Below are positions 27,061 through 48,491 of a DNA stretch of 64,000 nt, one piece after another. Position numbers and translations under genes: made by a program. The stretch lies in assembly GCA_039024555.1 (NCBI GenBank), contig JBCCQQ010000006.1:1-64000 (forward strand), written 5' to 3'. The notes beneath the pieces are model-generated. The model searched no databases and was not told the origin of the DNA. It was given only the letters and a program-made list of their open reading frames with translations. The DNA is from Cyanobacteria bacterium P01_D01_bin.156 (GTDB lineage Bacteria > Cyanobacteriota > Cyanobacteriia > Phormidesmidales > Phormidesmidaceae). How positions within the stretch are numbered: the first letter of the stretch is position 1; every line of letters starts with the position of its first letter.

Positions 27061-27771
27061 CTATTCTAGTATGGGAATATCAGCAACGGACTCCAAATCA
27101 GCTCCTGCTAAAATACTTTGCCAAGCATGATGAACATCTTGATTATCAGGCTCTTGTCTCCTCAAATCTGCCAAAAGTGCAATCATGTCATACCAAAGAT
27201 GCTCATCACGGTATGTAACAGCTTGAGATAATGAATTGGCTGCATCGGTGGATTCACCTGGCTGCAGTTGAATCCATCCATGTAAAACAGGACTATCAGG
27301 TCTTACCTCATCATTACACATGATGATCAATGACCATTGATATAGCTGATTATCAACTAAAGCAGGGGCCTCATTGGGGAAACTAACACTGACAATTCCA
27401 GGATTGTCTGGAAACTCAATGTAGGTCTCATAGTAATAACCATTATCTGACTGTACGCTAAATAAAGCCTGCCGAGGCGTATTTACCGATGTTGCCACTA
27501 AGATTTCAGGATGTGATTTACGCGTAAAGCCATACTGAGACGTAGGCAATAGCGGCGTCATTTCATGATTGGAACAACTATCTCGAGAGGCACCGCTGAC
27601 GGTTCCCTTAGGGGCCCGATCATTATCATCAGGCCAAAAAGACCAATCATTTGTTGGCCAAGTAGCAACCTCGAGTGAGTTTGTTGTAGTTTGAGCTACA
27701 GCATGACTCTGATTTATGTTGCCTAAAGCTATGGTTGATATGAATAGGCCCAGTGATAGATAATGTCGCAT
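27061..27771 (-). CDS. DUF928 family secreted protein
   Basis: Signal peptide; SGASRDSC, YQWSLIIMC and LWYDMIALL motifs. Confidence 0.85.
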   Translation of the reverse strand: MRHYLSLGLFISTIALGNINQSHAVAQTTTNSLEVATWPTNDWSFWPDDNDRAPKGTVSGASRDSCSNHEMTPLLPTSQYGFTRKSHPEILVATSVNTPRQALFSVQSDNGYYYETYIEFPDNPGIVSVSFPNEAPALVDNQLYQWSLIIMCNDEVRPDSPVLHGWIQLQPGESTDAANSLSQAVTYRDEHLWYDMIALLADLRRQEPDNQDVHHAWQSILAGADLESVADIPILE

Positions 27772-27843
27772 TGTGAGTCTAATTACACGTCTTGATAAGA
27801 GCTAACTATTTTGCAGGAATTAACTTTAGGTAGATTGTTATGG

Positions 27844-28626
27844 CTATTGAGTTGTTGTTACTGTAGACACTCTAACTGTTGAGGCTGCGTTAAGTTCTGT
27901 GAGATTAACAGCTTCTAACAAGCTAAACCATTCTTTAGCAATAGTCTGATTATTGGGGTTAGCTTGGTGTAAGTCTTCTAATATTAAGGCAGCATCATGC
28001 CATAAATGTGCTTCCTGATACAATAATTGAGCTTTCTCTAAAGGGGGAGCGGTGCTTAATCTGACAGCTAGATCCGGCGTTAAGGTTTGTTCTTCAATCC
28101 ATGTATGCAAATCAACACGGCGGGTCCAACCATCTACAGAAATGTCCTGCGCTCGATCATCTGCGATAATGGAAAAGTACCAGCGGTAGTTCTCATCGAC
28201 TTGTAATGGTTCTAGCCCTTCTACACTAGCTAAATCAATGCTAAAGATGCCTGATCTAGAGTCTACGGAAACTGTTGTGTCGTACACTAGCTCATCTGCT
28301 TCGTTACGTAAGACATATTCAACTTTCCGGATTCCCTCAGCGTTGGGTAAATAAAATAAGAAGCGTGGGTAAGCCGCTGTAGTCACTCCTAAATTAGTTT
28401 CAGGTACTAGCGCAATTAGGGGCATCTGTGGTGTATACCCAGAGACTTCAGGCCCACGGGTGCCTCCGCCCAGACGACGCCCTGGTAATCCCTGACTGGG
28501 TATATTGTCAGACTGGCCAGAGGCATTAGCTAAACCGGGTATTGCTCCCAAGTTGAGAGTGAGCAGACAGCCTAAGCTAACTGCAAAGATAGATCGATAG
28601 GACTTAGTTATGGCCATGGTTTTCAA
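27844..28626 (-). CDS. DUF928 family secreted protein
   Basis: Signal peptide; PGRRLGGGTRG, LIALVP, YRWYFSI and LWHDAA motifs. Confidence 0.88.
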   Translation of the reverse strand: MKTMAITKSYRSIFAVSLGCLLTLNLGAIPGLANASGQSDNIPSQGLPGRRLGGGTRGPEVSGYTPQMPLIALVPETNLGVTTAAYPRFLFYLPNAEGIRKVEYVLRNEADELVYDTTVSVDSRSGIFSIDLASVEGLEPLQVDENYRWYFSIIADDRAQDISVDGWTRRVDLHTWIEEQTLTPDLAVRLSTAPPLEKAQLLYQEAHLWHDAALILEDLHQANPNNQTIAKEWFSLLEAVNLTELNAASTVRVSTVTTTQ

Positions 28627-29275
28627 TCACAATGCAAGAGGATAGATGTTGTAGACTTAGCCTATTTAGTGCCTACACAGTTCGCATTTGTAGAACTGAC
28701 CTCACTTCACAAATGCAGTCTTACACCCATATTGCAATCTGAATGACATGACAAACCATTGTAGTTACACGTATATAGTTGAGATACTAGAACACTGCTG
28801 TTTGCGTAGGGCATAGAGTATAAGCACTGTCTGAGGTTGTTATGTGTATCGATCATCTTACAAATAAACAATAATCTTTGAGAGACCTTAATAATTAACG
28901 GTATTCATTTCAGTAAATTCTTTGATCTTTTCTAGTCGAGATAGTCTCCAGTCTCTTGGAAGCCAGTGTATTCAATTATTTTATATGTGCTCATTTGTTA
29001 AAGATTTCAAGAAAAAGATAAGGTTTTAAGCAGAACACTAATAAAAAATCATGTGGAAAAGCAGATTCAAATATTTATTTTGGAGATTAGATACTTAATG
29101 CTTTCAAACTTTTTATGAATGGAAAAGGAAGCGTAGGATGGACTAAGTTTAACCTGAGTCGAAAAAATAAACGTTGTTCATCTAGTGAGCGATAGCCGTT
29201 TCTGGACTATTGCCAAGTCTTTCTTGAATGACAATTAACAATGGTATGTGTCGTCAGCTGTGAGTATTATCAAAT

Positions 29276-31891
29276 TTATAGCCAATTCCCTACCAAAACG
29301 TAGGGAGCCCAATAAATAGGATGACGATATTGAGGATCCTGTAACAGGGTTAACTGAGCTTGGCGTAAGGCCTTAGCTCGAGTGGTGTTCGGTTGCGTTA
29401 GTGCCTGATAAAACTTTCCAATTAAATGGGCAGTCGCTTGGTCATTGATGGACCATAGTGTTGCTAAAGTACTACGTGCACCAGCATTGATAGCGGTTCC
29501 TGCTAGACCGAGTGCGGCCCGCTTATCTCCTGATGCTGTTTCGCAAGCACTCAAAACCAGTAGTTCAATTGCCTGTTCCCCAAACGCCAGGCTTGCCTGT
29601 AATGTTTGATCAAGCTCTGTTACATTAATGCGTTTGTCCCAAGCAAGGAGAAAAGTTTCTTCTGCCTTAGAGCTAAATTTTCCATGGGTGGCAATATGCA
29701 CAATTGGAAAGGACTGAGAGGTTAGTTTATGTTGCAATGCTGTTCGGGTAAATGCTTGATCAAGAAGTATTTCTTTATGTTGAACACTATTTTTAATTGC
29801 CTGCACTTCTTGAACTACATAATCTAAGGGGGAGAAACCTTGGCGAGCTTGAGTTAAACCAGCGACTAGTATTTTAATACTATCCTGGTGTAATGTCTGA
29901 GGAGAGATAAGCTTCAGCCCAGGTGTGAGAGCAATACTAAAGTCTTCGACTAGAAAGTGACTGCCATCATGCAAAACTGCCATAGGGATATTTTGAAGGG
30001 GACCGTCTAGTACAAAGACTAGGGTCTCGACATTACTATTTTTTAAGTCTGCAGAAATAGGACGAATTATCCAATCATATAGTTGTTGCGCAGGTGCAAG
30101 ATATTGACGTCGACTACGAACAACCAGAGTATTTCGCAGTTGCTCTACCAGTTGATCAATTTTCTGATCAGATACTTGTATCGATAAATGTTTTAGGGGT
30201 TGATGAGGTAACCGTATAATAGTGTCGAGATGATTCCCTAACAAAATTGGATAGATGATGGCGGCTCGTTCATCAATTTTATCAATTTGTACAGGTACAA
30301 CATCTAAACAAGCTTCTTTAAAGAAATTATCTAGCTCTGCTAGTTTCAGAGATTCAATGATATCTCGTGCTTGTTCTAGTTTCTCTTGGGAAACTGGTTG
30401 CATAGATTCAGGTTGAAGTAATAAAGCTACAAGTTCTCGATAGATAGGCTCTACACTTTCCTGAAAGGAAAACTGTACTTCTGAGCCAATAGCAACTAAA
30501 TCACCGCGCAGATTCTTTAGCAGTTCAATAGCTTGATCGTAGTGGATTATCGCATCTGCAATATTGCCCTGGGCTTTGAGTAATCGTCCTAGTTGCCATT
30601 GCCACTGGTATTCAATATCAGTGGCTTGGTGTAACTGAGCTAGGGTCAATGCTTGTTCAGTTAATTGATACGCATAGGCCCATTGCCGAGACTGCTCATA
30701 CACTTTAGCTAAATATCCTAAAGCGTAGGATTCAGCTCGTTGATCTGCTAGAACTTGAGCCTGCTGTACAGCACCTAACAAAACTTGAGCAACATTTATC
30801 TGTTCAAACTTTAAAATGGTTTGAGCACTCTCATTTTGTATGAGATTTAGTAAAATTTTTGCAAAATAGATTCGACTATAAATCGAGTTTCGATTTGAGG
30901 GAGACTTGGCTAATTCTTGTTGAATTTGAAGCCAATTTTTATGAATCTGCTCCCATTTTGATTGTTTAACCCAAACATTTAAGCGTGATAATTGACTATG
31001 AATTGTAAGAGCTGGTGAGAGTTGTAATTCTAATGCCCGATCGTAGAAGTTTAGTGCTTCATCCAGCTGCTCTCGTTTCTCAGCAATATTGCCACGCAAT
31101 GTAAGCATTTGGGCAATTTCTTTGTCAATCTGGAGAGTTTGAGCCATACTGATGCCCTTTTCTACTACTTGTTGTGATTCCTCCATCTGTCCTAACAAAA
31201 AGTACAAATGTCCTAGCCGTCTCAAGGCAACAAGACAAAGTAATGATGCTGGTTCTTTTGTCAAGGATGTGGTCGTCTCTCGCAGTTGTTCGGCTGCTCG
31301 TTGATAAAATCCTAAAGACTGAAGTGCCTGTGCCTGGTTAATTTGACTGCGGATTACTCCCGCACTATCGTGAAGTCGAAGATATAGCTCATATGCTTGT
31401 TGCCAACTGTCCAGAGCCTGTTCAGATTTTCCTTCGGCCAGCTGTAGGCTTCCGCGATTATTTAAGTTTTGAGCATAAAGTTGTAAAACCTGAGCATTCA
31501 AGTTGCTTGATAACTGATCTGGTAAATGATTGAGAGCCGTTTCAAGGGACTGATAGGCTTCATCCCAGCGTCCTAATTGCTGGTAAGCAAGTGCCAATAA
31601 GTTGTTTATCCGACTCTGAGCTAGAGTGTTTCCCTGGTTATGATAGTTAACTAATGCAGTTCGCCAATTTGAGATCGCACTTTCATACTCATCTGTCTCA
31701 TAAGCCGCCAGGCCTTGTTCTTCTGATTGATCAACAGTTTCTCTATGAACGTTATCAGTCTGTATAGCTGGCACAGGAAGCCGTTCGGATGAAACAGCCT
31801 GTCCTGCTATTAACAGGCTAAGACTCAGTCCTAGTAGCGATATTAAGATGAGTTTTATAGAACGATAGACTCTACACAACAAGAGAATCAT
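29276..31891 (-). CDS. TPR-repeat CHAT-domain protease with signal peptide
   Basis: Hydrophobic N-terminus, TPRs, LAELDNFFKEAC, catalytic VHIATHG and LSACETA, and YWAPYVLVGNW. Confidence 0.93.
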   Translation of the reverse strand: MILLLCRVYRSIKLILISLLGLSLSLLIAGQAVSSERLPVPAIQTDNVHRETVDQSEEQGLAAYETDEYESAISNWRTALVNYHNQGNTLAQSRINNLLALAYQQLGRWDEAYQSLETALNHLPDQLSSNLNAQVLQLYAQNLNNRGSLQLAEGKSEQALDSWQQAYELYLRLHDSAGVIRSQINQAQALQSLGFYQRAAEQLRETTTSLTKEPASLLCLVALRRLGHLYFLLGQMEESQQVVEKGISMAQTLQIDKEIAQMLTLRGNIAEKREQLDEALNFYDRALELQLSPALTIHSQLSRLNVWVKQSKWEQIHKNWLQIQQELAKSPSNRNSIYSRIYFAKILLNLIQNESAQTILKFEQINVAQVLLGAVQQAQVLADQRAESYALGYLAKVYEQSRQWAYAYQLTEQALTLAQLHQATDIEYQWQWQLGRLLKAQGNIADAIIHYDQAIELLKNLRGDLVAIGSEVQFSFQESVEPIYRELVALLLQPESMQPVSQEKLEQARDIIESLKLAELDNFFKEACLDVVPVQIDKIDERAAIIYPILLGNHLDTIIRLPHQPLKHLSIQVSDQKIDQLVEQLRNTLVVRSRRQYLAPAQQLYDWIIRPISADLKNSNVETLVFVLDGPLQNIPMAVLHDGSHFLVEDFSIALTPGLKLISPQTLHQDSIKILVAGLTQARQGFSPLDYVVQEVQAIKNSVQHKEILLDQAFTRTALQHKLTSQSFPIVHIATHGKFSSKAEETFLLAWDKRINVTELDQTLQASLAFGEQAIELLVLSACETASGDKRAALGLAGTAINAGARSTLATLWSINDQATAHLIGKFYQALTQPNTTRAKALRQAQLTLLQDPQYRHPIYWAPYVLVGNWL

Positions 31892-32218
31892 AGATATTTC
31901 ATCAAAGAATTACCCAATACATATGAGCAACCTAGGCTCCAACCGGTTCACTTCAGGCACACACACTTCCAGCCTTCCCTACTCGTAAAAAAGAAACTCT
32001 ATGTAAGTGACCAAATATATATATATTTTTTGATATGTAGTTGAAGGCTCTAGCTAGTGTTTGGGCATATTTGAAGCAATGATAACTAGACTTCTATTGT
32101 CAATAAACTCTAGTTATTGCAACAAGACCATTGTCCTAAGTATTTTTACTTGCCGAACCACTGTCCATGGTTACAGTCCAAGAAACACTTAGCGACTTGC
32201 GATCGCATCACCCATATC

Positions 32219-34897
32219 ATGAAGGATTGCTTAAGGACCGCATTGATAGCTCAAGGAATTGTCTTGGCGGGCCTAGGCTTAAGTGATATCAGCTTAGCTC
32301 AGGTGATACCTGACGCATCTTTGCCGATAGATTCACTGGTTGATTTTCCTGGCTGTAATACCCTCTGTACAATTACAGGCGGAACAGCTCAAGGAGCTAA
32401 TTTATTTCATAGCTTTAGTGAATTTTCACTACCCACAGGAGGGGTAGCAGCCTTTGATGAAAGCCTCACAATTGAAACAATCATTGGGCGAGTGACTAGC
32501 GACAAGGTTTCCAACATTGATGGCACTCTCCGCAGCAATCAGGCAAATCTGTTTTTGCTCAACCCCAATGGATTTATCTTTGGTCCCAATGCCGCTTTAG
32601 ATGTAGGGGGGGCTTTTGTCGCAACTACTGCGGAAAGCATACAGTTTCAAGATGGTACTAATTTCCGTGTTGCTGATGCAGCTCCACTGTTATCCGTCAG
32701 TACTCCAGTGGGACTGCAATTGGGTGAACAAGCCGGAATTATTCAAGTGGGAACAACCGCAACACCAGGCATTGGAAATCAGCTGTATCTCAATCCTAAT
32801 GGTTCCATTAATCGAACTGATAAAAGTAGCGGTGGTGGTTTGGCTGTTGACAGTGGTCAAACGTTAGCCCTATTGGCCAATGGAATCTCGCTTGTTGGAG
32901 GTAACTTGGCTGCCCCCGAGGGGCATATTGACTTGGGTAGTGTTAGTGAACCAGCTTTCATTTCCATAGAGCAGACTAATACCACTTGGCAGTTTGACTA
33001 TAGCGGTGTCGATGACTTTGGTGATATCACCCTAACCCAAGCAGCTTCTGTTGACGTAAGCGGAGATAGTAGCGGTAGTCTTCAAATAATCGGTAATCAT
33101 ATTGACTTAGCAGATGGCTCAGCTCTGATTGCCGAAACGCTGGGTAATGGAATAGGAGGGTTCATCAATGTTCAAGCAAAAGATATTAAGTTGGAGGGTA
33201 TATCTTCCCTTGCTCCTCCAGCTTCCCCGCCAATACCAGGACTCCTCTCTAATCTTCCCTTGGTAACTGGCATCTTTGCCAATGTGGCTTTGGCACAATC
33301 AGGGGAAGGTAGTGACCTGACTATCAATACCCAAAGTTTAACGGTGACTGATGGGGCTCAGGTTACAGCGGCAACTTTTGGGGCAGGCGCAAGCGGTAAT
33401 CTAACTGTTAATGCCCAAGATATTAGGGTAAGTGGAGGTACACCTGGAGGTCCCAGTGGGTTGCTAGCAGCGGTTGCTCCTCGCACACCAATTTATGGTG
33501 ATGCCGGACAGACACTGGTTGATGCGGGCCTTGCTGAGTTACGAATCCCCCCTAACTCAGGTTCACCTCTATTATTTGCACTTCCCCCTGTTGCCACAGG
33601 TAATAGTGGCAACGTAACGATTGAAACTCAATCTCTCGTTGTTGAAGATGGAGCTCAAATCTATTCAAGGAGTGCAGGCTTGGGAAATGCTGGTAGTCTG
33701 CATATCCAAGCTGACACCATAGACATCACTGGTAGTAATCTGGGGGGGCCGAGTACGCTACAGGCATCTGCAGAAACTCCTATTGATGGAGCAGGCAATG
33801 CCAGTGATATCACAATCAACACTCGCCTACTCAATGTTAGCGATGGAGGGCAGATTTCCACAGGAACCCAAGGCCCCGGTGATGGGGGGAATGTATTGAT
33901 CAATGCAACAGAATCAGTGTCTCTTTCAGGCAACGATGAAGCCGGACGAAGCGGTATTTTTAGTAGTGCCATTAGTCTAGCGGGTTTTTCTGCAGGCACT
34001 GGTCAGGGAGGAAATGTTACGGTAAACACGCCATATCTGGAAATTCGTGAGGGCGCTAACATCAGTGCCAGTAATTTTCCGAGTACTGAGAATCCAAGAC
34101 TTGCTCCAGGGACGGGGGCCGCCGGTACAGTGAATCTCAACATCCAAGGTGATGAAGGAATACTCCTGTTAGATGAGGGAGAAATTACTGCAGCATCCTT
34201 ATTAGAAAATGGCGGTAATATCAACTTAGATGTTCAAGATATATTACTGCTGCGCAATGAAAGCCACATTACAGCACGGGCAGGTACAGGTGGAGCTGGA
34301 GGCAACATCAACATTACAACCCCTTTTCTAGTAGCTATTCCCAACGAGGACAGCGATATTATTGCTAGCGCTTTGAATGGTCCCGGTGGCAACATAGTGA
34401 TTACTGCATCCAGCATTCTTAGCTTGCAAGAGCGCCCTGCTATTCCAGGTAATGGAACCAACGATATTGACGCAAGCTCCCAATTTGGCCTAGATGGTAC
34501 TGTAACTATTCAGAATCCGGAGTTAGATCCGGGCCAGGGGCTAACTACCCTTCCTACCAACTTGATCGACCGTTCAACCTTATTTTCCCAATCTTGTGGG
34601 GTCGATGATACGAGTACTAATTATTTCACTCTGACAGGGCGAGGTGGGGTACCTTCTCATCCTGGCTACACATTAGAAGACTCTACAGCGCTTGCGGATC
34701 TCGGCAGTCGTTCGAATCATGTAACCAATAGTCAAATACAGCCCACCAATTCAGATAGCTTACCAAAAGCGTTCGGCACTACGAGCGTTGTGGAGGCACG
34801 CAGCTGGACAACAAATGATGCAGGGGAACCAGTCCTAATAGCTCGAGCCAATACGGCTATTTCTCAAACAAACGCGCTTCCCTATGCTTCATGCTAG
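32219..34897 (+). CDS. Filamentous haemagglutinin N-terminal (TPS) domain exoprotein
   Basis: Signal peptide ending SLAQ, NLFHSFSEF, NLFLLNPNG, beta-helix repeats and C-terminal FTLTGRGGVP. ATG 32219 preferred over TTG 32117. Confidence 0.92.
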   Translation: MKDCLRTALIAQGIVLAGLGLSDISLAQVIPDASLPIDSLVDFPGCNTLCTITGGTAQGANLFHSFSEFSLPTGGVAAFDESLTIETIIGRVTSDKVSNIDGTLRSNQANLFLLNPNGFIFGPNAALDVGGAFVATTAESIQFQDGTNFRVADAAPLLSVSTPVGLQLGEQAGIIQVGTTATPGIGNQLYLNPNGSINRTDKSSGGGLAVDSGQTLALLANGISLVGGNLAAPEGHIDLGSVSEPAFISIEQTNTTWQFDYSGVDDFGDITLTQAASVDVSGDSSGSLQIIGNHIDLADGSALIAETLGNGIGGFINVQAKDIKLEGISSLAPPASPPIPGLLSNLPLVTGIFANVALAQSGEGSDLTINTQSLTVTDGAQVTAATFGAGASGNLTVNAQDIRVSGGTPGGPSGLLAAVAPRTPIYGDAGQTLVDAGLAELRIPPNSGSPLLFALPPVATGNSGNVTIETQSLVVEDGAQIYSRSAGLGNAGSLHIQADTIDITGSNLGGPSTLQASAETPIDGAGNASDITINTRLLNVSDGGQISTGTQGPGDGGNVLINATESVSLSGNDEAGRSGIFSSAISLAGFSAGTGQGGNVTVNTPYLEIREGANISASNFPSTENPRLAPGTGAAGTVNLNIQGDEGILLLDEGEITAASLLENGGNINLDVQDILLLRNESHITARAGTGGAGGNINITTPFLVAIPNEDSDIIASALNGPGGNIVITASSILSLQERPAIPGNGTNDIDASSQFGLDGTVTIQNPELDPGQGLTTLPTNLIDRSTLFSQSCGVDDTSTNYFTLTGRGGVPSHPGYTLEDSTALADLGSRSNHVTNSQIQPTNSDSLPKAFGTTSVVEARSWTTNDAGEPVLIARANTAISQTNALPYASC

Positions 34898-35400: not shown

Positions 35401-38400
35401 ATGTCATCAGCCTCCCTTTCTCTCCAGGATGCATTTATTTCCTATGGAAGAGTCGATAGTAAAGAATTTGCCAGTAAGCTGAATCACTGTCTTGTTGAGC
35501 AAGGTTTGGAGGTATGGTTTGACTTTGATGACATTCCTCTAGGGGTGGACTATCAAAATCAGATTGATGATGGCATTGAGCGTAGCCAAAACTTTTTGTT
35601 CATTATTTCTCCCCATTCAGTCAACTCTGCCTACTGCCGCTTAGAAATTGAACATGCCCTACAGTTAGGAAAACGTATTATCCCTCTGTTGCATGTAGAA
35701 AACATTGGAAGAGATACCTGGCAAGCGCGTAATCCTGGCGGAACTGAGACAGATTGGCAAGATTATCAAGCCAAGGGGATGCATTCAAGTTATCCCAATA
35801 TGCATCCCATTATCAGTAAGATCAACTGGGTGTATTTTCGTGAGGGTATTGATGATTTTCAAACATCTCTTAAGGGACTGCTAGAGATTTTTGAGCGTCA
35901 GCAGGACTATGTTCATCGACACACTGTACTACTTTCTCAGGCATTGACCTGGCAGCGAAACCAAAAACAGGCCCAATATTTACTGACAGGACAAAACCGT
36001 ATTCAGGCAGAGAAGTGGCTTAAGCAGCGGTTCACAGTCGAACAAGCTCCCTGTCAACTCATTGATCTCCACTGTGAGTTTATTTGCGAAAGCATTAAAA
36101 ATGGCAACGGGTTGATGACCGATATCTTCCTATCTTATTCGGAAAAAGATAGGGAGCTGATGGACCAGCTACGTCAGTCCTTAATGAGAGAAGGGTTTAC
36201 GACTTGGATCAATCGTACTGATATTCAGGTCAGTGGTGATTTCCAAATGGCTATCAATAAAGGGATTGAAGAGGCTAGCCGGATGGTGTATTTGATTTCA
36301 CCAGATTCTTTGACCTCTCAATATTGTCAACAGGAGTTGAACTATGCCCGTCAGCTTAATAAGCAAATCATTCCCTTATTGATGCGGCCGGTTGATTTGG
36401 ATCAGATGGCAGATGATTTAAGGGCACTCCAGTTTATTAATTTTGCAAATAATGCCGACGGTGACACAGTTGCTTATCAGAAGGATATGGATAAGCTGGT
36501 TAAACTCCTTCAAGAGGACAGTGATTATTATCATCAGCATAAACACTTGCTGGTAAAAGCTTTAAAGTGGCAGCAAAATCAACACAATCCTAGCTTGTTG
36601 TTACGGGGATATAATCTAGGCCACGCTGAAGCTTGGCTAAAGATAGGACGCAAGCATGGTCAGCAAAAGCCATTGACGCTACAGGAAGAATTTATCCAGG
36701 AAAGTCTGCGTCAGCCGCCCAACCAGTCTACTGATGTTTTTGTTTCTTACTCTCGGGCAGACTCTGACTTTGCTCGTCAGCTAAACGACGCTCTTCAGTT
36801 GCAGGGGAAAACCACCTGGTTTGATCAAGAGAGCATTGTTGCTGGAGCAGCAAATTTTAAAGAGGAGATTTTTAGTGGTATTGAGAGTGCCGACCATTTT
36901 TTGTTTATCATTTCTCCTCGGTCCATTCAATCTCCTTACTGTGCTGAAGAAGTAGAGTATGCTCAAAGTTTGAATAAACGGATGCTGACAGTATTGCATC
37001 AGCCTATCAATATAAAGGAGTTGCATTCAGCTCTAGCATCCGTACAGTGGATTGACTTTCATAGCAAGACGAATGATTTTAATGCTAATTTTAGTACTCT
37101 TCTGCGAGCGTTAGATAACGATCCGGTTCATTTAAGATTTCACACCCGGCTTTTGGTTCAAGCGCTAGAGTGGGATCAACAAGATCGAGATGAGAGTCTG
37201 TTGTTGCGAGGTAAAGCTCGACGAGAGACTGAAACTTGGTTGTTAGAATCTAAGGGGAAATCTCCAAAACCAACTAGTCTGCAGCAGGATTTTGTTACAG
37301 CCTCTGCTTCTGAAGAAATTCGTCGGCAGCGCTCAGCCATCCGTTTGCAGAGGATTGGCATTGGGGTTATTAGCGTTGTTTCCTTGGTTGCGATCGCACT
37401 CGGGATTGTTGCTAATCAGCTGAGAAGCCGTGCTCGCGCTGAAACTGCTCGCGCTGAAACCGCGCAACAGGAAGCTGAGCTGCAACAAATCATAGCTCGT
37501 ACAGAAACCTCTGAGGCTCTTTTTGAGTCGGATCAGCCGTTTGAAGCACTTTTAGAAGCTATGCAGGCTGGTATCGAACTGAAGAATAAAGAGGATGAAC
37601 TCAACAGTAACGGTGACGAAGCTGATGAGGTAAATCAATCTAAATTAGCTACATCCCATGTGGAAGTGGTCACAGCTCTCCAGCAGGCTGTTTTTTGGGT
37701 ACGGGAGAAGAATAATCTGGATGGACATGACGGCATCATTTGGGACACGGCTATCAGTAAGAATGGCAAGATGATTGCATCGGCTAGTGCCGATGGCTCA
37801 GCTCGGTTGTGGAAAACAGATGGTAGCCAGTTAGGAGAGCCATTTTCTGCAGACGATACTCAAGTTCTTAGTGTTGCCTTTAGCCCTGATGCGAGACTAT
37901 TAGCGATAGGCTTGGAAAAGGGCGAAATTCAACTATGGCAGATAGAACCAAAGCGGTTATTGTTGACCACTATGGTACATAGTGAAGCGCCAGTAACAGA
38001 TCTTGCTTTCTCAAGTGACGGTCAGATTATTGCGTCGGCTAGTGAAGATAAAACGGTTCGTCTGTGGAAGCCGGATGGCACTTCCCTAAAAACTTTGACA
38101 CAACATATTGCAGCTGTGCGGGCAGTAGAATTTAGCCCAGATGGAAAGTTGTTAGCCACTGGAGCAGACGATAGCACCATTCGGTTATATACTCCCAGTG
38201 GAGATTTTCTAAAGACTCTTAGTGGACATAACGCTCAGGTAAAAGGGATTGCCTTTAGTCCTGACAGTTCTATGTTGGCATCAGCTAGCTGGGATGAGAC
38301 TGTACGCCTTTGGAAAACTTCAGGCGAGCTGATTAAAGATATACGTGGTCACAATACCCTAGTTTACGATGTGAGTTTTAGCCCAGATGGTAAATATTTA

Positions 38401-39588
38401 GCTTCTGCCAGCTGGGATAAAACTATTAAAACCTGGACTTTAAAGGGAGAATCAATCACCACTGTCTATGGGCACACTGCTCAGATCCACAGCATTGGGT
38501 TCATAACCCTTGACGACTCAAATCATCAACTTGTATCCGGTGGTGGTGACCGTACCATTCGCCTTTGGAAATTAAATCGTCCCTTAATTACTTCTCTACG
38601 GGACCATCAGGCTGGTGTATATAGTGTCGTCTTTTCGCCAGATGACGACACTATCGCTTCAGCTGGTGCCGATAATACTATTCGACTTTGGGATAAACAG
38701 GGCAATATCCGTGACAGGCTCACAGGCCATACATCAGTTATTTGGAAAGTACTCTACAGCCCAGATGGTAAAACTTTGGCATCAGCTAGCTCAGACTATA
38801 CTGCTAAACTCTGGAGCCATGAAGGTAAGTTGTTGAGGACTCTAGAAGAGCATAAGGGACCTGTTTATGCTTTGGCCTTTAGTCCAGATGGTAAATTATT
38901 GGCCACTGGAGCTGCGGATCGCACTATTCGCATTTTTCAACTAGATGGGACTTTAGTTACCGAGATTCCTGATTTGGATAAGGATGTATTGAGTTTAGCC
39001 TTTAGCCCAGATGGTAAAACTTTGGCCAGTTCCGGATGGGAACATTTTGTTCGTCGATGGACCTTAGATGGCAAAGAACTAGAGCCCTTAAAGGGGCATC
39101 GAGGCTGGATCCAGGAGGTAATCTATAGTCCAGATGGAAAGACTATTGCTACCGCTAGTTCCGACAACACCGCTAAAATTTGGGATCCTAATTCTGGGGA
39201 TTTACTCCACACCTTAGAAGGTCATCAGGATGGAGTGATTACCGTGCAGTTTAGCCACGATCAATCAAATCCAGATAAGAAATTAATTGCTACAGGCAGC
39301 TATGATCATACGGTGAAGCTATGGACCGCTTCTGGAGAGCTGCTGACTACTTTACGGGGACATGAAGGTCGAGTAAATGGCTTAAGCATCAGTCATGACC
39401 AAAAAATCCTGGCTACCGTAGGAGAAGATAAGCGACTACTATTATGGGATTTGAACCTGCAAGGCGAATTAAATTTGCTTCTCAAGCAAGGTTGTAATTG
39501 GTTAGAGGGGTATCAAAATACTAACCCTAAGGCTCCTCTAGAAATCAAAAATTACTGTAGTCAACAGTCCATAGAAACTACACCTTGA
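35401..39588 (+). CDS. Triple-TIR, TM-helix, ~14x WD40 protein
   Basis: Three TIR starts (DAFISYG, DIFLSYS, DVFVSYS), each with S-x-Y-C-x-x-E. Hydrophobic helix at about aa 652-671, then 14 WD40 repeats. No P-loop. Confidence 0.9.
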   Translation: MSSASLSLQDAFISYGRVDSKEFASKLNHCLVEQGLEVWFDFDDIPLGVDYQNQIDDGIERSQNFLFIISPHSVNSAYCRLEIEHALQLGKRIIPLLHVENIGRDTWQARNPGGTETDWQDYQAKGMHSSYPNMHPIISKINWVYFREGIDDFQTSLKGLLEIFERQQDYVHRHTVLLSQALTWQRNQKQAQYLLTGQNRIQAEKWLKQRFTVEQAPCQLIDLHCEFICESIKNGNGLMTDIFLSYSEKDRELMDQLRQSLMREGFTTWINRTDIQVSGDFQMAINKGIEEASRMVYLISPDSLTSQYCQQELNYARQLNKQIIPLLMRPVDLDQMADDLRALQFINFANNADGDTVAYQKDMDKLVKLLQEDSDYYHQHKHLLVKALKWQQNQHNPSLLLRGYNLGHAEAWLKIGRKHGQQKPLTLQEEFIQESLRQPPNQSTDVFVSYSRADSDFARQLNDALQLQGKTTWFDQESIVAGAANFKEEIFSGIESADHFLFIISPRSIQSPYCAEEVEYAQSLNKRMLTVLHQPINIKELHSALASVQWIDFHSKTNDFNANFSTLLRALDNDPVHLRFHTRLLVQALEWDQQDRDESLLLRGKARRETETWLLESKGKSPKPTSLQQDFVTASASEEIRRQRSAIRLQRIGIGVISVVSLVAIALGIVANQLRSRARAETARAETAQQEAELQQIIARTETSEALFESDQPFEALLEAMQAGIELKNKEDELNSNGDEADEVNQSKLATSHVEVVTALQQAVFWVREKNNLDGHDGIIWDTAISKNGKMIASASADGSARLWKTDGSQLGEPFSADDTQVLSVAFSPDARLLAIGLEKGEIQLWQIEPKRLLLTTMVHSEAPVTDLAFSSDGQIIASASEDKTVRLWKPDGTSLKTLTQHIAAVRAVEFSPDGKLLATGADDSTIRLYTPSGDFLKTLSGHNAQVKGIAFSPDSSMLASASWDETVRLWKTSGELIKDIRGHNTLVYDVSFSPDGKYLASASWDKTIKTWTLKGESITTVYGHTAQIHSIGFITLDDSNHQLVSGGGDRTIRLWKLNRPLITSLRDHQAGVYSVVFSPDDDTIASAGADNTIRLWDKQGNIRDRLTGHTSVIWKVLYSPDGKTLASASSDYTAKLWSHEGKLLRTLEEHKGPVYALAFSPDGKLLATGAADRTIRIFQLDGTLVTEIPDLDKDVLSLAFSPDGKTLASSGWEHFVRRWTLDGKELEPLKGHRGWIQEVIYSPDGKTIATASSDNTAKIWDPNSGDLLHTLEGHQDGVITVQFSHDQSNPDKKLIATGSYDHTVKLWTASGELLTTLRGHEGRVNGLSISHDQKILATVGEDKRLLLWDLNLQGELNLLLKQGCNWLEGYQNTNPKAPLEIKNYCSQQSIETTP

Positions 39589-40864: not shown

Positions 40865-42148
40865 TTATTGGTTCAGCATTTTGTTGATAAATGTAGGTAA
40901 GCAAAATGCAGCTTTATGGATATCCCTGTTGTAATACTGTAAATTAAATTGATCCGAAATATTTTGTGCTCTTTCTTGGTCAATATCATTGACAGGATGC
41001 TTTCCATCCTTTGTGCAGTAGGTAAAACTCCACATACCTGTAGGGTAAGTGGGAATAAATGCTAAGTAGCAAAAGACATTTTCAGTTTGAAAAATATTCT
41101 TCAAACAGTGATTTAAATCTATAAACGCTTTTTGATTAAAGTGAGGAGATTCGCTCTGAGCCGTCATCACGCCACCAGGTCTTAAACAGCGATAAACGTC
41201 TTGATAGAAGTCCTTGGAGAACAGTCCCTCTGCAGGCCCAACTGGATCGGATGAATCCACCACAATCATGTCAAAACTATTCGCAGCAGACTGTTTTATA
41301 TAGTTAATGCCGTCGTCAATGACGAGATTGAGCTTGGGATGATCAAAGGCTGACGACAAACTAGGTAAAAATTCTTTTGATGCTCTAACAACAGCCTCAT
41401 CAATTTCTACCATGGTGACGCTGTTCACCTGTTCATGGCGTAGAATCTCCCGAATACTACCTCCATCCCCACCACCAATGACCAGCACATCCTTCACATC
41501 TGGCTGTATTACCATCGGCACATGAATTATCATTTCATGATAACCTTTTTCATCCTTTTCACTGCACATGACCATCTTGTCAACAGCCAACAGTTTGCCA
41601 TATTCAAATGTATCAAATACCTCTACAGTTTGATAAGGAGACTTTTCTCGAAATAGACAGTCTCCCTTATGACGTATTGAAAGAGCAATATTCTCGTTTC
41701 GATCCGTAAACCAAACACTACGACTATACTTGGGTACCAACAGTTGCTGCGCTGCATCCTCGCGCAGCTCTCCTAGCTCTATACTAGCCTTTTCCAACAG
41801 ATCCAGTTGTCCTCGGTTAATCTCCACTGCGGACCCATGCTCTGCGTGAAAAGCATGTTTAAGTATTTTATAGGATATCCATGGATTAACAGAGTCACCA
41901 CAGGTAAACAAATCCACTGCTGCATAGCGATATTCTGGCCAGGTATGAATAGCTAGATGACTTTCTTGAATAACGACCACACCCGACACACCAAAAGGAG
42001 AAAAATGATGAAATGCTGAACTAATAATAGTCGCACCAGCTTCTTTGGCTGCATTGACCATACTAGACTCAATACATGGGACATCGTTCAGGACCTCAGA
42101 AGAGCATCCGTGGAACTCTACTAAAATATGACGACCAAGAGATTTCAT
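40865..42148 (-). CDS. speD-speE: S-adenosylmethionine decarboxylase / aminopropyltransferase (spermidine synthase) fusion
   Basis: N-terminal pyruvoyl site [14 protein letters not shown] and DLFTCG; C-terminal [17 protein letters not shown] and VDSSDP motifs. Confidence 0.92.
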
Positions 42149-45316: not shown

Positions 45317-48151
45317 TTACTCCTCAGGTTGAATGTTCACACCATCGCAGAGTTGACGATCGCCATCCTCGATTAGTTGATTTGTTCCCAAATAGTCATC
45401 GACTACCTGACAGGCACTACCCATTAAGTTGTTTAGGGTCAGATCGGCCAAACCCCATACAATTACCTGATCATCAGCTCCTGCGGATACTAAAGACATG
45501 TTGCTAGGGGTAAACTCAAGGCTATTAATTCTGTTTTTGTAATTAATGAGGGAGAGTAGTGGGGTTAGCTGAGTTTTATCCACGGTCCACATATTAATGT
45601 GATTATCTGCATCAATAGCGGCCAGGTATTGACCATTATTACTAAATTGAATGCGATTAAAGGTGGTCTCATTGCGAATAATCGTTTGCTGTTTTCCGTT
45701 TATGCTCCATAGGCGGAGTGAATTGTCATCACTACCGGTAGCCAGAATTGGCTCCACATCTTGCGATGAGCTGAAGCTGACAGGGTTAAAGCTAAAGGAT
45801 TGAATTGTATCGTCATGGGTGATATTAGTGACGGCGTTCTCATTACCTTCGTTGTTAAGGTGCCATATTTTTAGCGTGTTTCCCCGAGGCAAAATAGCAA
45901 TATGTTGACCGTCGGGACTGAAGCGAACTTTTTGGATGGGAGGTCGTTGAGCTGTTTCAGCATTTGTAACATCGGGTAGGGGCTTAACTTGCTGACCATC
46001 TGTAGATGATACTAAATAAACCTCCGGGCCACTGGCGACCAGCAGCATGGTGCCATCTGGACTGATATCCACACTGTTGATTGGTTTTGGATAGGTCCAC
46101 GTTTTTTTATTTTTGCCAGTCAACGTTTGTAAATGAATGTTGTTGCCACTGGCAATGGCAATTATCTCTTCGGTGCTTTCTTCAGTGTTATTTGGCTTAG
46201 GGCCAATGCTTAGATCGCTGAGAGATTCTTTGAATGACCAGGATTGTATGGGTTGGCCATCTTGGGTCCAGAGTTGAAGCTTTGAACCAATGGTGGTGAC
46301 TACTTTTGAGCCATCACCATTAAAGCTAAGCTGATTAGCAGTTCCTTGATAAAGGGGCGGAGTAATAACGTCTTGCCCCTGTCGCCAGAGATGAATCTCG
46401 TTGTCGCGACTGGCAATGACCAGCGTTTTTCCATCTGGGCTAAAGATCGCGTCTACGGTATCTCGCTCTTGGACAAATGGCTGAGCTTTTTGGTTGTCTA
46501 AATTCCATACAGTAATGCGTCTAGAGCTATCAGTTGTGATGATATGCTGCCCATCGGGGCTAAAGCGAATGCTGTTGACCCAATCGTAGTGGGGGAGGCT
46601 GTGTAGTTTTTTCCCATCCATAGTCCATAGCTGAACGGATCTATTACCTGCGGCTGCAATTATCGGGGGCTGACCTGGCCGATCAGGGCTAAAGCGAACC
46701 ATATTGACCCAATTGTCGTTAGGCATATTCTGGAGCATTTCTCCGTCCAGGTTCCAGAGCTGGGTTGCTTGGCGGGTAGCCGTTAGCAGGTTTTTCCCGT
46801 CGTTACTAAACTGAACACTATTAACCCAGTCTGAATGAGGGAAACGATGAATGATCTCTCCATCTAGGTTAACAAGTAGCACTTGCCGATGTGTTGCGAT
46901 CGCAAGCTGATTACCATCTGGGCTAAAGCTCACATCTTTGGTCTTATCGTCAAATGTTTGCGAGCTTACTAGCGTGCCATCTAGCGCCCATAGATTAACC
47001 GTCTGGTCTGTGCTAGCTGAAGCCAGGGTGTTACCATCTGGGCTAAACACCACACTTGTAACAGAGTTACTGTGGCCCTCTAGGGTATGTAGCAAGTTGC
47101 CCTGCATATCCCAGAGTCGCACCGTATGGTCACGGCTGGCAGAAGCAATGGTCTGCCCATCGGGACTCATAGCCAAACGATTCACATCATTGGTATGGCC
47201 CCTCAGGCGGTTATGTTCTCGCCAGCCATCTTCATAAATAGCCGCCTGTAGTGCGGTCAATACGCGACTGTGGGTGTTAGCATCTGCTCGATTGAGCTGT
47301 TTGCGCAATTGCTGGCCTGCTCGTAGCGCTTCTAGTAAGGCATCAAAGGGTTTACCCGATTCTGTTAGGGATAGAGAATAGCGGCTAAGGGCATTGATTT
47401 GGCTTTGTTGGACGGTCTCAATTTGGCGCTTTTGGTTAACGGCAAAGATAGCCAACCCGGCCATAACAACAGTTGCTACCATGGCCCCTAATACCACCCG
47501 TCGAGCGTGTCGAAGTTCCTGTTGTTGTTCTTGTTGTTCTTCTTTGAACAAACGATCTCGTAGTGCTTGGCTAGCTTGAATAAAAGCTATCTGCAGGGGG
47601 GTGGGTATGGGCTGTTTCGTCTCAACCAGTTCCTGCTGCAACCAGTTATTGGCCTGGGTTAACTCACTACCGCGTAATAAGATATCATCGGTTTTATCTT
47701 TGTTTGTCCACTCGATTGCCTTGACCAGCAGTTTGGTGTGGGTTTTTACGTGGTCTAAATCTGTATTGAGTGTTTCTACCAATGAGTTAAATGCCGTATC
47801 AAAGTCATTTTGCTCTTGGAAAAATAGCCAGTTTGCCTTGCCTAATTCTGGATGTACTATTTCCATGTCGAACCCTTCTCGGCGCACGATGGGGACTAAT
47901 CGTTTGTTGTGTTCGACGGCGTGGTCAATTTCTTGCCCGCAGACCTTAGAGGAAATTGAGTCTGGGCTGATTACAAAAATAAACGTATCAGCGGCTTCAA
48001 TTCCGGTTTGAATTTCTGCCCACCAGTCCGCTGTTAGGGGAATATCTTCCCAATCTACCCAGGAGTCATAGTTGCTCTTTTCCAGAGCCTTGTGGAGCAC
48101 CTTTACAAAGGTCTTATCTTTGCGGGAGTAGGAGATGAAGACGTCAGTCAT
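45317..48151 (-). CDS. TIR, TM-helix, WD40-repeat protein
   Basis: MTDVFISYSRKD and SKVCGQEIDHA, hydrophobic helix VVLGAMVATVVMAGLAIFAV, many WD40 repeats, no P-loop. Confidence 0.9.
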   Translation of the reverse strand: MTDVFISYSRKDKTFVKVLHKALEKSNYDSWVDWEDIPLTADWWAEIQTGIEAADTFIFVISPDSISSKVCGQEIDHAVEHNKRLVPIVRREGFDMEIVHPELGKANWLFFQEQNDFDTAFNSLVETLNTDLDHVKTHTKLLVKAIEWTNKDKTDDILLRGSELTQANNWLQQELVETKQPIPTPLQIAFIQASQALRDRLFKEEQQEQQQELRHARRVVLGAMVATVVMAGLAIFAVNQKRQIETVQQSQINALSRYSLSLTESGKPFDALLEALRAGQQLRKQLNRADANTHSRVLTALQAAIYEDGWREHNRLRGHTNDVNRLAMSPDGQTIASASRDHTVRLWDMQGNLLHTLEGHSNSVTSVVFSPDGNTLASASTDQTVNLWALDGTLVSSQTFDDKTKDVSFSPDGNQLAIATHRQVLLVNLDGEIIHRFPHSDWVNSVQFSNDGKNLLTATRQATQLWNLDGEMLQNMPNDNWVNMVRFSPDRPGQPPIIAAAGNRSVQLWTMDGKKLHSLPHYDWVNSIRFSPDGQHIITTDSSRRITVWNLDNQKAQPFVQERDTVDAIFSPDGKTLVIASRDNEIHLWRQGQDVITPPLYQGTANQLSFNGDGSKVVTTIGSKLQLWTQDGQPIQSWSFKESLSDLSIGPKPNNTEESTEEIIAIASGNNIHLQTLTGKNKKTWTYPKPINSVDISPDGTMLLVASGPEVYLVSSTDGQQVKPLPDVTNAETAQRPPIQKVRFSPDGQHIAILPRGNTLKIWHLNNEGNENAVTNITHDDTIQSFSFNPVSFSSSQDVEPILATGSDDNSLRLWSINGKQQTIIRNETTFNRIQFSNNGQYLAAIDADNHINMWTVDKTQLTPLLSLINYKNRINSLEFTPSNMSLVSAGADDQVIVWGLADLTLNNLMGSACQVVDDYLGTNQLIEDGDRQLCDGVNIQPEE

Positions 48152-48491
48152 GGCTGAGGCATGGGAATGAGGGAAGGTTCCAATAATGTGCTTCAAAGAC
48201 TGGCACGATTATTTCGAAAATGCCGGTGCTGATCTAGGGCATAAAACGCGCCATAAGCCCCTGAACCCTGAGGTTGTCAACGATGTACGCTGGGCTATAA
48301 GTAGCAACGTCTTGATACTAGAGTTTGTGCAATCTGCCGAACGAATTAATCAGGCTACTCTAGTATGGACAGTTACCAAGTCCAACTCGCTAAGGGCTGG
48401 GTAAAACTTAGAAGCATGACCTTGTGCATTTAAATATCATGGCTTAACAAGCGTTTTAGGCTTAAACCGTGAAGTCGTTGCTTAACAGTTC

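Follow-up and report, generated by a model that had tools for sequence, protein, structure and literature searches.

We analysed a 64,000-nucleotide stretch of Cyanobacteria bacterium P01_D01_bin.156 (contig JBCCQQ010000006.1, positions 1 to 64,000; here the window), in which an open reading frame (ORF) at 35401..39588 (+) encodes a 1395-amino-acid (aa) protein with three TIR domains, a helical module after each of them, one hydrophobic helix and 14 WD40 repeats (Table 1). Pfam matched TIR_2 over three stretches of the protein (E 1.9e-80) and WD40 over 13 stretches, and the count of 14 repeats was obtained with a custom repeat profile and anchors. Pairwise identity among the three TIR units is 34-37%, and the motifs SAYCRLE, SQYCQQE and SPYCAEE give Glu at positions 82, 312 and 517. 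A first-pass annotation had proposed three Glu-bearing TIR domains, each followed by the same helical module, and both features were confirmed, the modules by profile matches at 170-233, 376-437 and 577-637 (E 2e-25 to 3e-21). The TM-like helix that it had noted corresponds to a strongly hydrophobic segment at residues 652-670 (mean hydropathy 2.73); the runner-up segment reached 1.08, indicating one helix only. Its 14 WD40 repeats were likewise recovered, and their division into two propellers is suggested by the repeat number. In an AlphaFold model of residues 1-690 built from a 47-row alignment (predicted local distance difference test score 85, predicted template modelling score (pTM) 0.75), three TIR folds are joined by helices. 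A chance match or a gene mis-call was rejected on the Pfam, motif and homologue-search results. A scan for promoters and terminators upstream of the gene gave nothing above chance.

The annotation had also described the protein as lacking a Walker A motif and a nucleoside triphosphatase (NTPase) domain, and this was borne out. No Gx4GK[ST] P-loop motif is present in the 1395-aa protein, the looser [AG]x4GK[ST] matching twice, at 464 inside the third TIR and at 1200 inside a WD repeat, and genome searches for nSTAND1 and AAA_35 did not match the three-TIR gene. With no P-loop motif, no STAND family match (Pfam, best 25 of 55 families) and no such domain in the 1-690 model, a hidden NTPase domain was not found. 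The helical module nevertheless points to STAND proteins. Compared with the post-winged-helix segments of six AAA_35 sequences from the same genome, it gave an hhalign probability of 94.8 (E 5e-8) and a score of 39; the highest score among 20 column shuffles was 13.2. The match to nSTAND1 segments was weak (E 0.012, probability 3.6, two sequences only), and homology to nSTAND1 was not retained; the AAA_35 result stands. A search for relatives of the module among solved structures returned 0 matches. AAA_35/nSTAND1 STAND proteins resemble the receptor in the helical module, helix, stalk and WD40 repeats, and AAA_35 members also share its C-terminal cysteine pair, but they carry an NTPase, whereas the receptor has TIR units there and repeats the module after each TIR. 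The receptors thus look like STAND-helix-WD40 proteins with TIR units in place of the NTPase. Of the features by which STAND/NLR-like proteins (Avs, nSTAND1, AAA_35) are recognised, the post-winged-helix segment was found and the P-loop NTPase was not. One homologue (P0203) is a three-TIR array fused to an AAA_35 domain and has no membrane helix.

A homologue search with residues 1-680 returned 1501 proteins at E<=1e-10, and the family statistics given here refer to the best 120 of these 1501, a score ranking that favours multi-TIR rows. The survey of homologues for TIR copy number that had been suggested gave 1-7 TIR units per chain. The order A-B-A-B-C occurs in 48 of the 120 and A-B-C in 47, with others reaching seven units, and class I (A or C) alternates with class II (B) in 399/406 adjacent unit pairs once split matches are merged. 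In a quick tree of 128 selected units, the B units form one side of a single branch (Shimodaira-Hasegawa-like approximate likelihood-ratio test 100). An alignment of the three-TIR proteins shows the Glu kept at all three positions in 47/47. In the B units, the second-strand Asp is present in 0/47 and the Arg that follows the first strand in no more than 3/47; both residues are invariant in A and C. The description of the TIRs as catalytically intact therefore holds for the Glu in all three and fails for the middle TIR with respect to this Arg and Asp. Among A units only, a 30-residue insertion is found (35707-35805), in which W107, R110, W119, G126, H135 and P136 are invariant in the 47 rows; in the A-type module (36052-36087), C218 is invariant and C225 nearly so in the same rows.

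The nearest solved TIRs are the NAD+-cleaving enzymes (NADases) Cat1, SARM1 and AbTir, unit C being closest to Cat1 and then to SARM1, and the unit Glu aligns with the Glu of Cat1 and 7uxr; fold and sequence matches also include Hydra TRR-2 and the TIRs of Toll-like receptors (TLRs). Because the Glu is invariant, the array very probably cleaves NAD+, in support of the enzymatic-type TIRs of the first-pass annotation. The predicted product is ADP-ribose (ADPR) or a cyclic isomer, a choice that cannot be called from sequence. A Tyr lies four residues before the Glu in 47, 44 and 43 of 47 proteins for the three units. In the available portion of bioRxiv 10.1101/2022.05.07.491051, the residue linked to cyclisation in 12 cyclising TIRs is W in 9, Y in 2 and F in 1. 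A product prediction from this position was dropped, the Tyr not being decisive. The pTM of 0.75 of the 1-690 model and the strict unit order give only indirect support to the proposal that the TIRs are pre-clustered. Nucleoside-deoxyribosyltransferase domains in Beggiatoaceae arrays were also dropped, as the Pfam matches were below cut-off and overlapped TIR units.

Several observations bear on where the two halves of the protein lie. The tails on the TIR-module-helix cassette are interchangeable, comprising WD40, CHASE2 with further membrane helices, Cache (dCache), FGE, WG and TPR. Cache domains are established extracytoplasmic sensors. CHASE2 is described as an extracellular sensor in the accessible part of PMC5587647. 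Among 114 homologues with a tail, 109 have a helix of hydropathy >=1.6 after the last unit, and the net charge is +3.6 before versus +0.4 after the helix, a positive-inside bias. Exactly two Cys are present in 41/59 WD40 tails and a C-terminal Cys pair in 53/59; in the three-TIR protein, C1365 and C1386 are the only cysteines past the membrane helix, are both nearly invariant in 38 rows, and likely form a disulfide. In the helix-bearing WD40 proteins of the genome the repeats are Cys-free in 13/14, and three helix-less P-loop-WD40 proteins of the genome have 16, 10 and 3 Cys; the 12 WD40 proteins scored as helix-less include contig fragments. Given the same-position swaps with known outside sensors, the charge bias and the cysteine pattern, we consider it highly likely that the protein spans the membrane once with its N-terminus inside and that the propeller is oxidised and lies in the periplasm or thylakoid lumen. 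The proposed receptor with cytoplasmic TIRs and a propeller across the membrane was thus supported as a predicted topology. The cysteine pair as proof of location was weakened by three helix-less homologues that retain it.

The sensor itself is conserved. Across 14 orthologues, the propellers share 75% identity, and the positions that we take to be the propeller binding face vary only 0.03-0.04, yet differ between repeats. A diversifying sensor as in fungal NLRs was not seen: the repeats average 39% identity to each other and are conserved across orthologues. Receptors are present in 14/14 same-genus genomes, in keeping with vertical inheritance, and Pfam assignments for 25/43 window ORFs describe signalling and housekeeping genes, not a defence island. 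On these three grounds, conserved propellers, presence throughout the genus and lack of a defence island, a trigger that evolves quickly under phage pressure seems the less likely one. A conserved cue, signalling self or stress and possibly supplied by the products of the neighbouring TPS (two-partner-secretion), CHAT or DUF928 genes, is the likelier trigger, a suggestion we put forward with little weight.

We examined partner genes in an own-family sample of 121 genomes and in a phylum sample of 151 genomes, many negatives of which come from one large family. Within the former, receptor and LSDAT occur together in 50 genomes, the receptor only in 2, LSDAT only in 3 and neither in 66, such that LSDAT is found in 50/52 receptor-bearing genomes versus 3/69 others; in one patchy genus the corresponding numbers are 14, 1, 2 and 23. 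The phylum sample has a receptor unit in 11 genomes (one with a broken frame) and LSDAT in 14, and all 10 genomes with an intact receptor have LSDAT. For gene neighbourhoods, we used 75 array loci (from the best 80 of 564 matches, mean 13.4 kb) and marker profiles derived from the same loci, with names taken from Pfam matches of representatives. DUF4231 was found in 23 of the 75 and LSDAT in 8; by a rough calculation, about 0.15 of 75 loci would be expected for a single-copy gene, and both genes are single-copy in the source genome. DUF4231 adjoins CHASE2 members (13) and WD40 members (7). Same-strand runs were observed for LSDAT-DUF4231-receptor (L102, L103) and for LSDAT-receptor (L100, L101, L104, L107), and 18 close pairs were hand-picked, a number that is not a rate. 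The single-TIR receptors at L100:5200-8388, L102:5858-8983 and L103:4307-7534, which adjoin LSDAT, have an extra N-terminal domain of ~110 aa that resembles a winged helix (weak DUF7342 match).

The same partners were found for close orthologues of the three-TIR gene (77-85% identity in the queried unit), 5/7 of which share a contig with LSDAT at a distance of 15-16 kb. The two orthologue loci that were read contain, in order, LSDAT, DUF4231, an M15 gene, a five-TIR CHASE2 receptor, a TPR gene, a TPS gene and then the orthologue. In the source genome, the first part of this cluster is on contig C7, where the only LSDAT gene and the only DUF4231 gene adjoin a five-TIR CHASE2 paralogue; in the window, the three-TIR gene lies behind another TPS gene. 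The C7 genes exceed the Pfam cut-offs (LSDAT_prok 192.8 bits, DUF4231/SLATT 100 bits). Of the longer LSDAT homologues, 33/34 are fusions with DUF4231 or SLATT. Based on the co-inheritance, operons and fusions, LSDAT is probably the receiver and SLATT the output. At L099:8007-9980 (G147), an apparent deletion remnant has a truncated LSDAT, then part of DUF4231 that continues into a membrane tail of the CHASE2 type, and then DUF928, with no TIR array.

The best ten solved-structure matches of LSDAT are TRPM2, aligned to MHR1/2 with E 3e-9 to 4e-5. In the available text of bioRxiv 10.64898/2026.03.30.715250, residues M215, Y295, R302 and R358 of TRPM2 are reported to bind ADPR; the numbering used here is that of human TRPM2. 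Among 21 LSDATs, M215 is kept in 17, Y295 is replaced by Trp in all 21 and R358 is kept in all 21, giving a predicted ligand site in which 3/4 of these positions are kept or conservatively changed. LSDAT thus resembles TRPM2 in these respects; it differs in having no R302 and no TRP channel domain, and a SLATT protein with two helices would form the pore. Prokaryotic LSDAT-SLATT pairs (Pfam LSDAT_prok, DUF4231, SLATT_1, SLATT_3), of which the partner genes are members, are predicted nucleotide-gated pores in the sections available of PMC7159879 and PMC9503650. Peptidoglycan hydrolases are often fused to or flank SLATT-type proteins. The DUF4231/SLATT tails vary among GH19, phage lysozyme and C39 peptidase, many proteins having no tail (L002:2062-3609, L082:4506-5918, L094:8777-10534, L098:6946-9144), and the tailed proteins are reminiscent of a holin joined to an endolysin. 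An M15 gene occurs in 17/75 array loci, the peptidase M15 protein at L002:4680-5891 having no hydrophobic segment and an N-terminal domain without assignment; in 8/75 loci a 108-aa protein of no Pfam family lies between DUF4231 and the M15 gene (L060:13829-14155).

We favour a pathway, to which we give a probability of about 0.52, in which a ligand-gated membrane receptor produces an NAD+-derived, ADPR-type messenger that acts on an LSDAT-SLATT pore. The WD40 part would bind a ligand across the membrane, and the signal would run via the stalk, the membrane helix and the helical modules of STAND origin, so that active sites between TIR domains would close, whereupon the TIRs on the cytoplasmic side would cleave NAD+. 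Such site closure is suggested because known TIR enzymes need two domains, the NADase active site forming between them according to the available portion of bioRxiv 10.1101/2022.05.07.491051; the alternating class I/class II order could fix the pairings within one chain. The product, ADPR or a cyclic isomer, would be diffusible and would be read by the separately encoded, TRPM2-like LSDAT, which would open the SLATT membrane pore. In the source genome, the C7 LSDAT and DUF4231 may serve ~14 receptors in trans, and a diffusible product read by one LSDAT would explain a single LSDAT gene alongside many dispersed receptors. Many DUF4231 proteins carry lytic tails, which suggests that one output is the loss of the cell. 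The purpose would most likely be to lose or lyse one cell in a filament or colony once a conserved cue at the surface is sensed, a point to which we give little weight. More tentatively still than the pathway, and with less than even confidence, we propose a surface TIR-receptor family of filamentous and colonial bacteria with swappable sensors and ordered heterotypic arrays, in which ADPR or an isomer gates a split TRPM2-like LSDAT-SLATT channel, often with a wall-lytic enzyme, sacrificing one filament cell.

A number of observations weigh against this pathway. No LSDAT or SLATT gene was found near the three-TIR gene within the 64-kb window. The sampled genomes are kin, so that the co-occurrence counts overstate independence, and three genomes of one genus hold LSDAT-DUF4231 with no match to the receptor query. 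SLATT is tied to the receptor less closely than LSDAT: matches to the DUF4231 query were obtained in 35/52 receptor genomes and in 0/40 of genus g86, where, of five LSDAT loci read, a DUF4231+SLATT_1 gene adjoins in two and none in three. LSDAT adjoins the receptor in several genomes that have DUF4231 at another place, a patatin lies between LSDAT and the array in one genome, and in Beggiatoaceae-type loci (outside cyanobacteria, mostly short) an LSDAT-SLATT fusion lies upstream in 1/30. TRPM2 R302 is kept in 0/21 LSDATs, the terminal TIR of five-TIR proteins lacks the Glu in 16/46 (kept in 30/46), and the membrane helix is absent in 5/114 homologues, three of which retain the cysteine pair.

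Some of these observations would fit the use of the same receptor and messenger for ordinary surface signalling (motility, biofilm or filament development) together with the CHASE2/DUF928/CHAT/TPS cassette, LSDAT being an eraser, buffer or direct TIR regulator and not the gate of a lethal pore. DUF928, CHAT and TPS occur in 28, 31 and 17 of the 75 array loci, respectively, CHASE2 tails are shared with cyclic di-GMP enzymes encoded in the window, and the placement of LSDAT by the receptor with DUF4231 elsewhere is in line with such a role. So are the genus-wide presence of the receptors and the propellers with their near-invariant, repeat-specific positions. Some SLOG domains have been proposed to degrade ADPR signals in the portion available of the review PMC9503650. 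In the three genomes whose receptor query had no match, LSDAT-DUF4231 adjoins NAD salvage genes, namely those for nicotinate phosphoribosyltransferase, an NrtR-type Nudix regulator and NAD synthase (L088, L089, L090). Surface signalling of this kind sits poorly with the LSDAT-SLATT fusions in nearly all longer homologues and with the lysozyme, GH19 and C39 tails and the patatin substitute, which are effector-type domains, and we regard it as rather unlikely. The array could also be the effector itself, depleting bulk NAD+ on ligand binding as in TIR-bearing Avs or Cat1, with tandem copies raising activity. The closeness of unit C to Cat1 and SARM1, the Tyr in place of Trp at the cyclisation-linked position and the presence of up to seven units per chain are consistent with depletion, which leaves unexplained the near one-to-one co-inheritance with LSDAT, the operons and the single-TIR members in the same operons; we judge it improbable.

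The two other alternatives concern the receptor layout. Most known WD40 sensors are cytoplasmic, and if the helix were a mere anchor or re-entrant, the TIRs and WD40 repeats would both be cytoplasmic, as in an NTPase-less, NLR-like sensor of an intracellular ligand. The five helix-less homologues, and one homologue that joins the array to AAA_35 without a helix, are compatible with this layout, but the 19-residue helix with its positive-inside bias, the CHASE2 and Cache tails at the same position, and the Cys-free repeats compared with the Cys-rich, helix-less WD40 proteins make it quite improbable. Least probable, and only a slim chance in our estimation, is a true Toll-like layout in which the TIRs have no enzymatic role and serve as scaffolds for the recruitment of other TIR proteins. 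Small proteins account for some of the 45 TIR_2 matches in the genome, and the matches to Hydra TRR-2 and TLR TIRs and the terminal units without Glu agree with a scaffold; the Glu is invariant at each position in all three-TIR proteins, and the co-inherited partner is a nucleotide-binding-type SLOG protein, not a TIR adaptor.

The receptor family extends well beyond this gene. The source genome has 14 ORFs with a TIR-module cassette of one, three or five units, and, among the matches listed, the closest named homologues of the three-TIR protein are from Leptothoe and relatives. The hosts are mostly filamentous or colonial cyanobacteria, along with Beggiatoaceae (Parabeggiatoa) and Bacteroidota such as Flexithrix. 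In the source genome, C11:64938-77639 (L006) carries four tandem single-TIR/module/helix/WD40 paralogues with nearly identical TIR units. Two three-TIR paralogues, at C86:7859-12083 and C78:23209-24678, look broken, one running on as WD40 in another frame and the other ending within the third TIR near a contig end; an assembly error is possible. Close to the three-TIR gene, recurrent family neighbours are present (Table 1), including a TPR-CHAT protease gene whose product has a hydrophobic N-terminus and contains the His and Cys motifs. Also in the window, an S-adenosylmethionine decarboxylase-spermidine synthase fusion (40865-42148, -) is followed by an arginase-family gene. The window ORFs at 154-2694 (+), 846 aa, and 58390-60378 (+), 662 aa, have no Pfam match at E 1e-5.

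Table 1. Parts of the three-TIR receptor gene and related genes in the window.
Feature	Coordinates	Strand	Residues and remarks	Basis
Whole gene: three-TIR array, membrane helix, stalk, 14 WD40 repeats	35401..39588	+	1395 aa	ORF, Pfam
TIR unit A, class I	35428..35898	+	10-166; catalytic-position Glu82; own insertion	Pfam, motif
Helical module after TIR A	35908..36099	+	170-233	module profile
TIR unit B, class II	36121..36516	+	241-372; Glu312 retained, Arg and Asp replaced	alignment, tree
Helical module after TIR B	36526..36711	+	376-437	module profile
TIR unit C, class I	36733..37116	+	445-572; Glu517; same type occurs alone in single-TIR receptors	
Membrane-proximal helical module	37129..37311	+	577-637; AAA_35 post-winged-helix homologue	
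Predicted transmembrane helix	37354..37410	+	652-670; Arg-rich stretch before	
Stalk linking membrane helix to repeats	37417..37710	+	673-770; helical up to 689 in model	
14 WD40 repeats	37717..39453	+	cysteine-free; putative double beta-propeller, predicted extracytoplasmic	
C-terminal cysteine pair	39493..39558	+	C1365/C1386, likely disulfide	
TPS domain protein, directly upstream	32117..34897	+	TPS gene also precedes orthologues	
Two DUF928 genes and TPR-CHAT protease gene	27061..31891	-	recurrent family neighbours	
Paralogue	45317..48196	-	single C-type TIR, module, membrane helix, WD40 repeats	

Among characterised systems, the closest in its presumed working is Thoeris. In the main text of bioRxiv 10.64898/2025.12.03.692087, as far as available, type I Thoeris combines a TIR, 3'cADPR (a cyclic ADPR isomer) and a SLOG sensor, and type VII a TIR, cADPR and a SLATT effector, and in the latter a SLATT protein responds to a TIR product, which sets a precedent; the words 'WD40', 'tandem', 'cyanobacteria' and 'patatin' are absent from that text. 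The likeness lies in Glu-bearing TIRs linked to a SLOG-fold sensor and SLATT proteins, with several TIR sensors per effector set. The receptor differs in being a large, predicted single-pass protein that combines an ordered set of 1-7 TIR units with an outside sensor, the SLOG protein in being a TRPM-like LSDAT that is separate from or fused to DUF4231/SLATT, and the receptor genes in being dispersed in the genome. A TIR gene linked to a nucleotide-sensing effector, as in Thoeris, is found in the family and, for the three-TIR gene, only in trans and via orthologues. NCBIfam ThcB4 gave 103 bits with the three-TIR protein, below its cut-off of 220, and PADLOC ThsB matches span single TIR stretches only.

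The first-pass annotation had called the protein a Toll-like-receptor analogue, which suits the receptor layout; the predicted output is Thoeris-like instead, with co-inherited LSDAT (SLOG) sensor and SLATT proteins. Its account of the TIR array had missed the two alternating TIR classes, the STAND origin of the module and this co-inheritance. The TIRs of animal TLRs are scaffolds. Like animal Toll-like and IL-1 receptors, the protein is predicted to have an outside repeat sensor, one membrane helix and inside TIRs, but the chain orientation is opposite, with N-terminal TIRs, the sensors are WD40, CHASE2 or Cache instead of leucine-rich repeats (LRRs) or immunoglobulin domains, and there are several TIRs with a catalytic-type Glu; the likeness is one of analogy, not of demonstrated receptor homology. 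The N-terminal LRR ectodomain and C-terminal TIR that define TLRs were not found. As judged from sequence features, the three-TIR protein would be Thoeris-like in working and, by defining features, neither a STAND protein nor a TLR. Of the roles raised in the annotation, immunity and cell-contact signalling may each apply, as may developmental signalling.

In the literature, we did not find a description of this architecture or of a link between LSDAT and TIR receptors, although the papers defining SLOG and SLATT and the supplements of Thoeris surveys, which lay outside the search, may mention such operons. The architecture is not described in the available portions of PMC8195603, PMC7159879, PMC9503650, PMC5587647 and bioRxiv 10.1101/2023.05.26.542521. 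Nor did we find a named signal source for LSDAT-SLATT pairs, for which the defining 2015 paper, also outside the search, may note a TIR link. The receptor family is a candidate for this signal source, and the compact three-gene operons (L102, L103) make the receptor-LSDAT-SLATT idea testable. The alternating TIR classes provide a natural experiment on active-site sharing between two TIR domains.

To our knowledge, the bacterial TIR signalling characterised so far is set off by phage cues within the cell. In the literature, we found no description for bacteria of TIR signalling used outside-in, by what is likely a surface receptor, and a family of TIR receptors that span the membrane and carry CHASE2, Cache, FGE and WD40 sensors would broaden TIR signalling to extracytoplasmic cues. 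If the more tentative proposal of a surface receptor family gating a split channel is true, TIR signalling would in this case run from the outside in, and bacteria would have a counterpart of the ADPR-gated signalling of TRPM2; if the output is cell loss, it would bear on the long-open trigger of single-cell programmed death in cyanobacterial filaments.

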